From the IMG/VR virus record IMGVR_UViG_2734482570_000003: a stretch of 33,537 nucleotides of DNA, one strand, 5' to 3'. This stretch comes from a virus (Duplodnaviria; Heunggongvirae; Uroviricota; Caudoviricetes). The notes beneath the pieces were generated by a model. The model was not told the DNA's origin, did not search any database, and was given only the letters and a program-made list of their open reading frames with translations. This document shows positions 10,248 to 33,537 of the stretch, in pieces (the stretch's first letter is position 1; every line of letters starts with the position of its first letter). The position numbers and the translations under genes were made by a program.

Positions 10248-13928
<3,681 letters not shown>

Positions 13929-13954
<26 letters not shown>

Positions 13955-14474: not shown

Positions 14475-14519
14475 TGTTCATTCCACGGACAAAAACAGAG
14501 AAAGGAAACGACAGAGGCC

Positions 14520-14700
14520 AAAAAGCCCGTTTTCAGCATCTGTCGTTTCCTTTCTTTTCAGGGGGTGTTTTAAATAAAAACATGAAGTTACGGCGAAGAA
14601 GAACGGAAACGCCTTAAACCGGAAAATTTTCATAAATAGCGAAAACCCGCGCGCCTTCCGCCCCGTAACAGGCCGGATCGCCGGAAAGGACCCGCAAAGA
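14520..14700. other. cos region (cosB, cosN, cosQ) internal to the window; cosN about 14652-14663
   Basis: Reverse complement of 14581-14700 aligns with the remembered lambda cos flanks; the 12-nt cohesive-end position reads GGGCGGAAGGCG. Confidence 0.75.
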
Positions 14701-14915
14701 TGAGAATAATTATCACTTGCATTAATATCCGGCTTCTTCCACCCTCGCACAGGACTGGCGAGCATGAGGGACAAACCCGCGAATCATTAGCGCGGTAAAA
14801 ACCCGGTGTGCATCGTTTTTGATTATTTCCGCACACTCGCGCAGAGGAGTTCCCCGTCGGGCTACGGTCATGGTTAATGCGGAAATACGGCGACGATGCA
14901 GCGCGGTATTTAATG

Positions 14916-20105: not shown

Positions 20106-20636
20106 TTACTTAACCCAATTAACTACACCGCCAGCGGCCACAACCGCCCTTTCACAGTCACGCTCATATCTCAAAGGTTGAAATACACCATCAATAAAAT
20201 ATTTATCTCCACCAAACGCTGCAGGAAGTGAAACAGAAAACTGAATATGACCATCCGGAGTTACCGGAGAGTTGCCAGCCAGTCTACGCAACACAGCCTT
20301 AACGGCCTCAATACGGTCATCATCAACTTTTTCTACAATATTGGAATTTAAATACTTCGAAGCCTTGCTATGCCAATCGCTGGTTTTAGGGTCTTGTCCA
20401 TCCATCAAACGCCAAGCTTCAGCGATTAACTCATAGCCAGTGACAGTGGCTTCCTGCGCATCACCAATAAGTCGTGTAATCTCTCTTTCAAGCCGACCGC
20501 CTAGCTCTGTTTTAGTGCAATGTTCTGACCAATCGCCAGCCTCAAGCAGCGCGAGAATGCTTAAAATATCGTCCAATAGAACGGTAGTATTATCGACTTC
20601 CTTCTGAAACTCACCGGCTACTGATTTATGCATCAT
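20106..20636 (-). CDS. Hypothetical protein sharing an AGNxPVTPDG segment with the 20847..21596 protein
   Basis: 176 aa; no other recognisable motif. Confidence 0.5.
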   Translation of the reverse strand: MMHKSVAGEFQKEVDNTTVLLDDILSILALLEAGDWSEHCTKTELGGRLEREITRLIGDAQEATVTGYELIAEAWRLMDGQDPKTSDWHSKASKYLNSNIVEKVDDDRIEAVKAVLRRLAGNSPVTPDGHIQFSVSLPAAFGGDKYFIDGVFQPLRYERDCERAVVAAGGVVNWVK

Positions 20637-20935
20637 TCGTCATCCTCATCTGAGTCATCCTCATCACAGGATGAGAGTAGTGGGTTAGTCATTCGCCCTA
20701 CTTGAGTGGCGTAGCCACGCCGACAGAGATTGCGCAGCACACTGTATATTTCGAACATCTCGGTTCGTTCATCACCAACATCAAGCTCAGATGCTATAGC
20801 GTGGCATTCAGTCGCGAGAGCCGATATTTTCTGAAATAACTCTGCTTTATTCACTCTTCGACTCCTGCGGCGGTTCTGGTAGTGGCATCCAGTGAGTTGC
20901 TTGCTCAATACCATTACCCGGCTTAATCGTTGCAT
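20633..20935 (-). CDS. Hypothetical protein with acidic C-terminal tail
   Basis: 100 aa ending CDEDDSDEDDE; start uncertain. Confidence 0.35.
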   Translation of the reverse strand: MQRLSRVMVLSKQLTGCHYQNRRRSRRVNKAELFQKISALATECHAIASELDVGDERTEMFEIYSVLRNLCRRGYATQVGRMTNPLLSSCDEDDSDEDDE

Positions 20936-21596
20936 CTCCGCGCCGAAAGGTGCTTCCGGTATAGCGTGCGGAGCATATTAGCGGTTCAACCAGAGAGCTA
21001 TCGAAATTCACCGAAATAAGCACGTTCTGGCCCTTTTCAGGCATTCGCTCACTACAGCTTATCCAACCATCCGGAGTTACCGGATAGTTGCCAGCCTCAT
21101 ACGCGACCCTTATCCAGTGCATAAGCATTTCAGTACTTACACATCCACAATCAACATCAATTTTGTCATGCTGCTGTTCCAGCCATTGCTCAAAAGTTAA
21201 CTTGTAAGTTTGGCTTACAGGTTTGGCTTCCAGTTCTGCTATGTGATTTTTGGCTGATTCCAACTCAATCGACAATTTTTCCAACTGCTCTTTATGATTT
21301 TTATATTCCTGATATGCGTGCCAAGACTGACCTTTGCGCACACTATCAGTGATATCAGTAATCTGTTCTGGTGTTAGCGTGGTCAGTGGCTGTGATGGGA
21401 AAATAAGCACTTTCCCGGAATCCCAATCAAAACCAGCGTGAATTGACTGAACCTCAACTGAAGGTGTTGAACCAATGCTGCCAGGCGAATGAACAACGAT
21501 TGTTACATCCATATCGCGACGATGGCTGTGGTTGTTGGACAAAATACGATTCAACAAAATACGATTCACCAACTCAGAAAATTTAGAAAATTTCAT
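20847..21596 (-). CDS. Hypothetical phage protein with DUF551-like C-terminal domain
   Basis: 249 aa; coiled-coil middle; C-terminal ...ATHWMPLPEPP resembles DUF551 as remembered. Confidence 0.5.
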   Translation of the reverse strand: MKFSKFSELVNRILLNRILSNNHSHRRDMDVTIVVHSPGSIGSTPSVEVQSIHAGFDWDSGKVLIFPSQPLTTLTPEQITDITDSVRKGQSWHAYQEYKNHKEQLEKLSIELESAKNHIAELEAKPVSQTYKLTFEQWLEQQHDKIDVDCGCVSTEMLMHWIRVAYEAGNYPVTPDGWISCSERMPEKGQNVLISVNFDSSLVEPLICSARYTGSTFRRGDATIKPGNGIEQATHWMPLPEPPQESKSE

Positions 21597-31417: not shown

Positions 31418-33325
31418 TTATCCGAAATATGTCAGCCATGCTAACTGCATTGCTGATATAGGGCTGTTTGCACTGCCGGACCAAGCATAATTCTGGCCAT
31501 TATAATGAAACTCAACAACGTATGAGCCATCACCAATATTTCTCACAGGCTTAAATACCGGCTTAGATACAGGTGAAGAAGGCGCGGGCGGTTGCTGTTC
31601 TTCTACGCTCTCTTCCTCTTCCTCTTCCTCTTCCTCTTCCTCTATCTCAATTTCGTCGTCATCCAGATCGTCATCCTCTGATAATTCATCCGTCTGTTCA
31701 GGTATTGCTTCCAGCTCTTCTTCGTCAGGCATAACGATTTCTGGAGAATCTATTTTCAGCTGCCATTGTCCATTTTCGCCAACAAATTGCCCCAGAGCAT
31801 CAGCAGCAAACTCCAGGTATCGACTAATCATTGTAGGGCTAAATTTGAATGCTCTTAGAGTGCTGTTCGTGATTTTTATAGAGGGGTCCTGCTCTACCAG
31901 CTGCTTAACTGTGTTATGCAGACGAACTCCGGCATCTCCTCTGGCGAATCCTGGCATTTCGTCATCAAGCTGCTGCAATGCTTCCAGCCTGGTATTTTCG
32001 TTTCCAGTATTTGGCCTCCATGTCTTTGAGAAGTTGGCCAGCTTGAATTGCTTATAGTGTAATTGAGTGTTTTCATCGTCATGGCCTAAAATTTCCATAA
32101 AGAAAACATCCTCATCTACGTTTTTCCAACGAGGATCTACGCGGAAAAACATTTCATACGCAATACGGGCATAAATAGCACGACTATCTTTATAAACACG
32201 GCGGTCATCTTTGAAAAATGATTTAACCCACGGGTTAAAAGCCTTTGCTAATATGGCATTAATCCGTCCGTTTTCAGAGCGTGTGTCGTTATCTCCATAA
32301 CCTTTAACGACATCATCAAAATCAGATGCTGCTGGGCATGAGCGAAGTACATTTATTAAATAAACAAATGTTTTTGCTTCGCATAATGTATATATTTTTC
32401 TGGTTATATCATCAGAAGTTCTTTTTTTTGCTTGGCCTAAAAAATCAACGGTATACTTACCAGAAACAGTAAATGTACCTTGATACATAATCTCAATCAT
32501 TCGTCTTCCTGACAATGCAGCAAGTGCAAATGCCAAAGGAGCCATACCTGAACGAGTGTTTAGATTATTTAATGTAGCAGGGCTATTTATAATATCGTAA
32601 ATAGCTTGCATATATTTAGGGTAATCAATGACCACCACGTTACGTTTCTTATTGTGCAGAACGTCTGCCCATCGTTGCTGGATAGATGCGCGTTCGGCAG
32701 GGCTTAGTTGAAGATGATAGAGAATCTCATGGTTAACTTTTAGCTGATTCAACTCCTCAAGTAAGGCAGATCCTTGCTGTAGTAATTTATATAAATAATC
32801 GCGCTTATCTTTCCAGTTATCGCTAGTTAAATCAGAAATGGCGAATTGCCACTCTTTATATTTATTTGATAATTTTAATAACTTATTATGACTTTTGTTA
32901 TCACCAATTCTGATATTAGATAAATCTTCTGATAAAGGGAGAATTAATTTTAATTTTGCCTGTAAAGCTGACATTCTCTGGCGAATATCGGCAGCAGGTA
33001 GAGAAAGCCATGATAATAGCTCCTCATTATATAAAGGATACTTTTCAGATAGGCGATGTATATTTTTTTCAAAGCTATGATGAAGTTTATCATCAAACCG
33101 TTTTCTGGCCCTGCTCATATAGGCATTGAATGTGTTGGCTGTAATTCTTTTTTCTAATCCTTTCCCCCTAAACTTTCGCTTGTCATTAAATAATGCATTT
33201 TTAAATTTTAATGCAACAGCTTTTATTTTTTTTGTTTTTTCCCCTTGAGGACGGTCAGAGTTATCTATTGACTCAACATCGCTAACAAGTGAGTTTATTA
33301 ATTCACCGATTTTTACTTTGCTCAT
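31418..33325 (-). CDS. telN: Protelomerase (telomere resolvase) TelN
   Basis: 635 aa, close to the 631 aa of N15 TelN; long acidic linker; adjacent to the telomere palindrome. Confidence 0.85.
   Translation of the reverse strand: MSKVKIGELINSLVSDVESIDNSDRPQGEKTKKIKAVALKFKNALFNDKRKFRGKGLEKRITANTFNAYMSRARKRFDDKLHHSFEKNIHRLSEKYPLYNEELLSWLSLPAADIRQRMSALQAKLKLILPLSEDLSNIRIGDNKSHNKLLKLSNKYKEWQFAISDLTSDNWKDKRDYLYKLLQQGSALLEELNQLKVNHEILYHLQLSPAERASIQQRWADVLHNKKRNVVVIDYPKYMQAIYDIINSPATLNNLNTRSGMAPLAFALAALSGRRMIEIMYQGTFTVSGKYTVDFLGQAKKRTSDDITRKIYTLCEAKTFVYLINVLRSCPAASDFDDVVKGYGDNDTRSENGRINAILAKAFNPWVKSFFKDDRRVYKDSRAIYARIAYEMFFRVDPRWKNVDEDVFFMEILGHDDENTQLHYKQFKLANFSKTWRPNTGNENTRLEALQQLDDEMPGFARGDAGVRLHNTVKQLVEQDPSIKITNSTLRAFKFSPTMISRYLEFAADALGQFVGENGQWQLKIDSPEIVMPDEEELEAIPEQTDELSEDDDLDDDEIEIEEEEEEEEEEESVEEQQPPAPSSPVSKPVFKPVRNIGDGSYVVEFHYNGQNYAWSGSANSPISAMQLAWLTYFG
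31609..31640 (-). repeat. Hexanucleotide (CTCTTC)n coding repeat giving a poly-Glu tract in TelN
   Basis: Plus strand ctcttcctcttcctcttcctcttcc; encodes EEEEEEEEEEEE. Confidence 0.8.
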
Positions 33326-33495: not shown

Positions 33496-33537
33496 ACATA
33501 ATTCCCCATTATACGCGCGTATAATGGGGAATTATGT
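33496..33537. other. Telomere resolution site (telRL/telO-type palindrome), truncated by the window end
   Basis: Perfect 42-bp palindrome ACATAATTCCCCATTATACGCG|CGCGTATAATGGGGAATTATGT, dyad centre between 33516 and 33517, running to the last base of the window. Confidence 0.8.

Follow-up and report, generated by a model that had tools for sequence, protein, structure and literature searches.

A lambda-type cos site with a natural right-half cosN variant in an N15-like telomere prophage

The window, meaning the whole 33,537-nucleotide stretch of viral DNA analysed here, very probably contains a functional lambda-type cos site with a naturally occurring cosN allele. In phage orientation (the minus strand) positions 14663..14652 read GGGCGGAAGGCG, the counterpart of which in lambda is GGGCGGCGACCT. 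The feature is genuine, though for the most part ordinary, and adds one more to the right-half cosN variants already documented in nature. A lambda-type cos, terminase and cosB with a different cohesive-end sequence had been proposed in a sequence-only reading of this DNA, and alignment to lambda together with Pfam matches supports that proposal at the level of homology. From the same homology we infer the end sequence of the virion DNA, the nick positions and the incompatibility with lambda ends.

The minus-strand context of the site is GTTACG-GGGCGGAAGGCG-CGCGGGTTTTCGCTATTTATGAAAATTTTCC, and between 14710 and 14590 this strand reads ...GCGGGTCCTTTCCGGCGATCCGGCCTGTTACG GGGCGGAAGGCG CGCGGGTTTTCGCTATTTATGAAAATTTTCCGG.... 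The variant 12-mer is present in a single copy, with none expected by chance, and a search of the whole window for the canonical GGGCGGCGACCT gave zero copies. The lambda DE3 record labels the aligned 12-mer GGGCGGCGACCT as 'cos site', so the lambda cosN on which the sequence-only reading relied was the right one. Mismatches to it occur at bp 7, 8, 9, 10 and 12, with C11 and bp 1-6 the same. There are thus five differences and not the six first counted, and all five lie within bp 7-12, in agreement with the claim that they are confined to the second half of cosN. With 5 of 12 bases changed, the site falls outside the canonical cohesive-end group, defined by a 12-mer the same as lambda's. The left half GGGCGG, and a 5'-CG-3' at each of the two predicted nick positions, 12 bp from one another, are those of a lambda-type site (CG/GGGCGGAAGGCG/CG, with slashes for nicks). 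Rotational symmetry of the 16-bp core extends to 8/16 bp here versus 10 in lambda, and the G2/C11 pair is retained.

Table 1. Features of the cos region, terminase genes and telomere region in the window
Feature	Position	Strand	Remarks
cosQ-position heptamer, GGGTCCT	14687..14693	-	starts 30 nt upstream of the top-strand nick; sequence and spacing as in lambda
cosN core, 16 bp (CG, 12-mer, CG)	14650..14665	-	both nick-flanking CG dinucleotides kept
Predicted 12-nt cohesive-end sequence, GGGCGGAAGGCG, cos bp 1-12	14652..14663	-	alignment to the lambda DE3 12-mer annotated 'cos site'
Right half of cosN, bp 7-12, AAGGCG (lambda CGACCT)	14652..14657	-	lambda alignment and allele spectrum
R3 of cosB, cos bp 50-65, AGGCGTTTCCGTTCTT	14599..14614	-	lambda-identical, at the same distance from cosN
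R2, AGAAAGGAAACGACAG	14555..14540	-	16-bp TerS-binding repeat of cosB; gap-free against lambda
R1, CTGTCGTTTCCTTTCT	14514..14499	-	16-bp repeat inverted relative to R2; gap-free against lambda
Nu1 (TerS), 181 aa	13929..14474	-	PF07471 Phage_Nu1, E = 1e-95; starts at cos bp 190
A (TerL), 641 aa, GTG start	12029..13954	-	GpA_ATPase PF05876 and GpA_nuclease PF20454 (Pfam)
Protelomerase ORF	31418-33325	-	TelK_N, muzzle, catalytic and stirrup domains
Perfect 21+21-nt palindrome, telRL type, ACATAATTCCCCATTATACGC / GCGTATAATGGGGAATTATGT	33496-33537		cut by the window end

The flanks of the 12-mer had been described as matching lambda over more than 20 nt either side. This holds on the right, where the ungapped alignment is identical for 58 nt, and fails on the left, where identity covers 6 nt only (GTTACG) and 26/30 positions back to cosQ agree, with 4 mismatches. 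Between cosQ and the Nu1 start, with the 12-mer excluded, 12/208 positions (5.8%) differ from lambda. Against this background the 5/6 mismatches in bp 7-12 have a probability of P ~4e-6 per 6-nt window, or ~8e-4 corrected for all windows, and the clustering is far beyond chance. It also exceeds what relaxed selection alone would give; the cluster would call for sequence imported from a diverged lineage, or for a hot spot of mutation at this place.

The surrounding elements follow lambda closely. The GGGTCCT heptamer, present in 218/218 tabulated cos loci, lies upstream of cosN at the lambda DE3 spacing, and we take it as established (Wieczorek and Feiss) that this heptamer is cosQ. The R3 position, the R2/R1 pair and the cosN-to-R3 spacing are those of a lambda-type cosB; cos bp 13-70, R3 included, equal lambda with no gaps, and the alignment stays ungapped down to the Nu1 start codon. 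The coordinates of R3, as well as the identical 16-bp sequence in R2 and R1, are as published (PMC9026076).

The position of the changes can be set beside what has been reported for lambda. The two halves of cosN differ in function: bp 7-12 can be mutated with minimal effect, and the symmetric left-half changes are severe (Feiss et al. 2015, PMC4669245); for example, G2C cuts yield tenfold and C11G is silent (PMC4669245). According to the Feiss laboratory, bp 7-12 are free of selection and right-half variants are nicked efficiently by TerL, the stated cause of the asymmetry being that R3-bound TerS anchors TerL for bottom-strand nicking (PMC4669245). In keeping with this, lambda TerL gives equal bursts on the cosN of lambda and of N15 (PMC4669245). 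Natural cosN sites keep the CG flanks, the left half and cosQ, and variation has been seen in bp 7-12, at positions 9 and 12 in N15 and phiD326 and at 8, 9 and 11 in Gifsy-1 (PMC4669245). The cosN of mEp213/LLS is GGGCGGCGCGCT (Zheng et al. 2025, PMC12315714). The high conservation of the CG flanks and the 10 symmetric bp of lambda cosN are documented in two sources (PMC4669245, PMC9026076), as is the placement of the cosB-side nick by the TerS-R3 anchor together with the cosN-to-cosB spacing (PMC4669245, PMC9026076).

By homology to lambda, Nu1 dimers would bind R3, R2 and R1 of cosB, and gpA would thereby be placed to cut the bottom strand at the bp 12/13 junction and the top strand immediately 5' of bp 1. 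Cutting would leave 12-nt 5' overhangs consisting of GGGCGGAAGGCG and its complement, not lambda's GGGCGGCGACCT, with the left 5' end predicted to begin from GGGCGGAAGGCG and the right-end bottom strand from CGCCTTCCGCCC. All five changes lie in the cosB-proximal half, where nicking would be driven by the TerS anchor and not by sequence; an unmodified lambda terminase should therefore handle the site. The elements under selection, namely bp 1-6, both CG dinucleotides, cosQ, and R3 with its spacing, are all intact. The published tolerance data for bp 7-12 span one- to three-base changes, and the variant has five of the six at once.

The two ends of the chromosome should match one another, since both would be cut from one cosN sequence. 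Predicted duplex energies are much the same for the variant with itself (-18.6 kcal/mol) and for lambda with itself (-19.0), falling to -15.3 for lambda with N15 and to -9.5 for lambda with the variant, where 6 bp are paired. The N15 end was read as GGGCGGCGTCCG, and in the N15 record the first 12 bases are marked as a 5' single-stranded extension. Pairing of lambda with N15 ends lowers yield fourfold (PMC4669245). Given that cost, and with only 6 bp able to pair, variant ends are likely incompatible with lambda ends.

A functional site in which the bottom-strand nick is displaced, e.g. by 2 nt rightward, such that the overhang is not 12 nt, is very improbable. The variant does duplicate the CG preceding the bottom-strand nick, which forms a CGCGCG run there (GGCG/CGCGGG, versus ACCT/CGCGGG in lambda), and the sequence specificity of the TerL endonuclease centres is not high (PMC9026076), a property that would leave room for such a shift. 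However, the TerS-R3 anchor and the cosN-to-cosB spacing set the nick, and both are unchanged, bp 13-70 being identical and ungapped; a 12-bp stagger also fits the proposed symmetric TerL dimer. The lambda-like nick positions are consequently retained as the prediction.

The element that carries the site is an N15-like telomere (linear plasmid) prophage with a lambda packaging and structural module, an assignment based on collinearity with phage PhiR46_1, the protelomerase, the telRL-type palindrome and matches to plasmids. The window and PhiR46_1 are collinear at ~97% identity from the tail genes to telL, and the closest E. coli matches of the window are ~46-50 kb plasmids. The protelomerase gene lies beside the palindromic telomere-resolution site, as in telomere phages. 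The window end cuts the palindrome, so telRL is intact here and not resolved into hairpin ends.

Lambda and N15 each share part of this arrangement. The cos of lambda has the same architecture, spacing, cosQ heptamer, CG flanks, bp 1-6, bp 13-70, R2 and R1; it differs in having CGAC.T at bp 7-10 and 12, versus AAGG.G in the window, and the cosQ-cosN spacer of the window has four substitutions. Lambda is an integrating phage, whereas the window is a telomere plasmid prophage. N15 and phiD326, like the window, have a lambda-like packaging system whose cosN varies naturally in the right half, and N15 is in addition a protelomerase-dependent linear-plasmid prophage that has G12 in common with the window. 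In contrast, N15 has 2 changes in cosN (GGGCGGCGTCCG) versus 5 in the window, a right flank of CGCAGATTCTCGC, and its own packaging type, with a single-R3 cosB and the TerS gene (gene 1) from bp 89; the window has a lambda-type cosB, Nu1 from bp 190, and another cosN allele. Gifsy-1 (bp 8, 9 and 11) and mEp213/LLS (GGGCGGCGCGCT) likewise vary only in bp 7-12, with left half and flanks kept, but by 2-3 changes, fewer than in the window, and Gifsy-1 alters bp 11, which the window keeps. PhiR46_1 and YDC107_1 have the cosN allele and the Nu1 of the window unchanged.

A 37-nt probe, every 28-mer of which spans bp 7-12, located the variant 12-mer at 166 sites spread over 155 of the 5,426 complete E. 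coli genomes scanned, and the canonical allele has 7,405 sites in 4,097 of the 5,426; the variant thus accounts for ~2% of lambda-type cos sites in these genomes. On plasmids the proportions differ markedly, with 16 variant and 19 canonical sites, i.e. a variant share of 16/35 (46%; odds ratio 41, P = 4e-18). In IMG/VR ~77 contigs have the variant 12-mer. The phage database holds two variant records, YDC107_1 (CP025712, Ravinvirus) and PhiR46_1 (PV340565), neither of which starts at cos; in both, cos is unannotated and the allele passes without comment. The PhiR46_1 record names ECOR13 as host and annotates telL and telR, and from its host field it may be supposed that PhiR46_1 forms infectious virions. 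In a GTDB scan of one genome per species, evident contaminants aside, this cos type was confined to Escherichia and Shigella, with the variant also in Escherichia sp. E1V33; the scan used 19 specified bases, and roughly twelve of its matches, all in unrelated genomes of high GC content, were put down to chance and dropped on inspection of the flanks. In the searchable literature, Vahanian et al. 2017 excepted, GGGCGGAAGGCG or its complement appeared only in unrelated plant and Streptomyces papers; the sequence may already be tabulated in that survey (Vahanian et al. 2017, Virology 509:140).

The prophages that hold most E. coli lambda-type cos sites are of uncertain activity, and the variant could accordingly be a decayed, non-functional cos of a defective prophage, its changes being drift after loss of packaging. 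This is very unlikely. Decay would give scattered, idiosyncratic changes; instead one exact allele is found at hundreds of loci, and the constrained bp 1-6, CG flanks, cosQ and R3 spacing are all intact. A full-length TerL lies downstream of 36/41 variant loci (88%), compared with 48/65 canonical loci (74%). In the window, adjacent Nu1-type TerS and gpA-type TerL genes, as in lambda, are followed by W and a lambda-family portal, with the ORFs of all four intact. PhiR46_1, moreover, entered the database as a phage whose host is named.

The terminase of the window is close to that of lambda. Its Nu1 has 12 substitutions, all within residues 71-148, and the N-terminal DNA-binding domain is therefore that of lambda. 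Its gpA is the same at 636/641 residues (99.2%), the differences being N9D, S21A, T263S, I459V and D620E. Mutations of gpA at 504, 509 and 515 reportedly broaden cosN specificity, as Arens et al. are said to have found in 1999. These changes and the five substitutions in gpA would be the grounds for supposing that the terminase has co-evolved, so that a gpA of altered endonuclease specificity is needed for AAGGCG. Such a requirement is most improbable: R504, N509 and E515 are the same as in lambda, and no residue of gpA is diagnostic for the allele when 39 variant loci are compared with 40 canonical ones (all with a gpA of 641 aa), nor is any of Nu1 in 46 variant and 63 canonical loci. Five gpA sequences, and likewise five of Nu1, recur unchanged in both allele classes. 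On these comparisons the terminase is not altered to suit the variant cosN.

Although assemblies of phage genomes are classically joined at cos, there is virtually no chance that the 12-mer is an assembly or sequencing artefact of a contig join, an error that the sequence-only reading had wanted checked and that is excluded by recurrence of the identical allele in hundreds of independent records (the complete genomes, IMG/VR contigs and two phage records above), with many flanking haplotypes, on chromosomes and plasmids alike, and with cos internal and contiguous in the plasmid-prophage form.

Within the functional natural allele thus favoured, the spectrum of right-half sequences provides some history. 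Pattern scans, which required a non-canonical base at position 7 or 8, returned bp 7-12 alleles one step from lambda (CAACCT, AGACCT and TGACCT) as well as more distant ones (CAGACG, CTGACG and CAGGCG), of which CAGGCG is one step from AAGGCG. Rare forms are AAGGCT, AAGCGT and GAGCGT. CG at bp 7-8 with a non-A at bp 9 had no match in IMG/VR with the exact flanks of the window, and the N15-type and mEp213-type alleles thus belong to other flank contexts, which this pattern did not capture. AAGGCG is found with at least 12 cosQ-cosN spacer haplotypes, including the commonest canonical-type spacer, and with at least 4 cosB/TerS types, among them one whose TerS N-terminus is 21-like. So many spacer haplotypes and cosB/TerS types mark the allele as an old and dispersed one that has reassorted with respect to its flanks. 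All of these lineages keep the flanks ACGGGGCGG and CGCGGGTTTTCGCTATTTATGA, which would permit short recombination tracts without visible trace. The allele is tied to that of lambda via intermediates and would have been shuttled among phage backgrounds by recombination across the conserved flanks; it is especially common in N15-like plasmid prophages such as that of the window.

It is very improbable that the AAGGCG/CGACCT difference is non-neutral, with selection upholding these two common Escherichia alleles as cohesive-end incompatibility groups, or else that the single-stranded overhang is a mutational hot spot. If true, incompatibility or a hot spot would explain both the 5/6 changes in a ~6% background and the enrichment in plasmid prophages, and incompatibility groups could block end-joining or mixed packaging between co-resident lambda-type and telomere plasmid prophages.

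The allele is useful to annotators and offers a test, made by nature, of the asymmetry of cosN; it implies no new mechanism. The rule of right-half freedom, built on point mutants and on natural variants of two or three bases, is extended to 5/6 positions with a near-unchanged lambda terminase. Searches for cos and annotation of phage termini keyed on GGGCGGCGACCT will miss variant sites. Variant phages should be end-incompatible with lambda DNA, cosmids and lambda size markers, and mixed concatemers of both classes should give chromosomes unable to circularise.

Packaging-specificity modules and cosN alleles seem to reassort freely, because both alleles adjoin TerS proteins of other types. 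Chimeric TerS with a 21-like N-terminus and a lambda-like C-terminus, accompanied by a lambda-like gpA, adjoins both cosN alleles (L148, L149 and similar IMG/VR loci), and a third TerS type of 180 aa, starting at cos bp 146, accompanies AAGGCG. Eighteen variant loci with non-lambda sequence after I2 were considered as satellite (PICI) cos sites, and this was rejected; they are phages in which the N-terminus of TerS is 21-like and gpA resembles that of lambda. Separately, L010, L012 and L016 and ~19 other canonical-cos IMG/VR loci keep cosQ, cosN and I2, diverge right after bp ~45 (…TTTTCCGGGATCCATGTCC) and are without a Nu1-like ORF at bp 190. Loci of this type may be cos sites of cryptic prophages or satellites.

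Lambda cos with the lambda-specific spacer was also present in the assemblies of Raphidiopsis brookii D9 (GTDB locus L137), Aeromicrobium sp. PE09-221 (L139) and Alicyclobacillus fastidiosus 'plasmid unnamed3' (39,760 bp; L141), and an E. coli-type cos in that of Archangium violaceum Cb vi76 (L140). In all four genera these probably represent contamination with lambda or E. coli DNA.

Two further differences separate the window from PhiR46_1. The window is without ~1.6 kb, comprising two hypothetical genes, that PhiR46_1 has between Rz and cos. A 171-nt stretch of the window (14734-14904) aligns to both sides of this extra segment, which points to loss by deletion between direct repeats; the E. 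coli plasmids that match best also break at this Rz-cos point. A ~0.8-kb segment, 20280-21066, is without a match in PhiR46_1 and overlaps the ORF at 20847-21596 on the minus strand, which has a C-terminal DUF551 domain; the segment has the look of a minor exchange of accessory genes within the early region.
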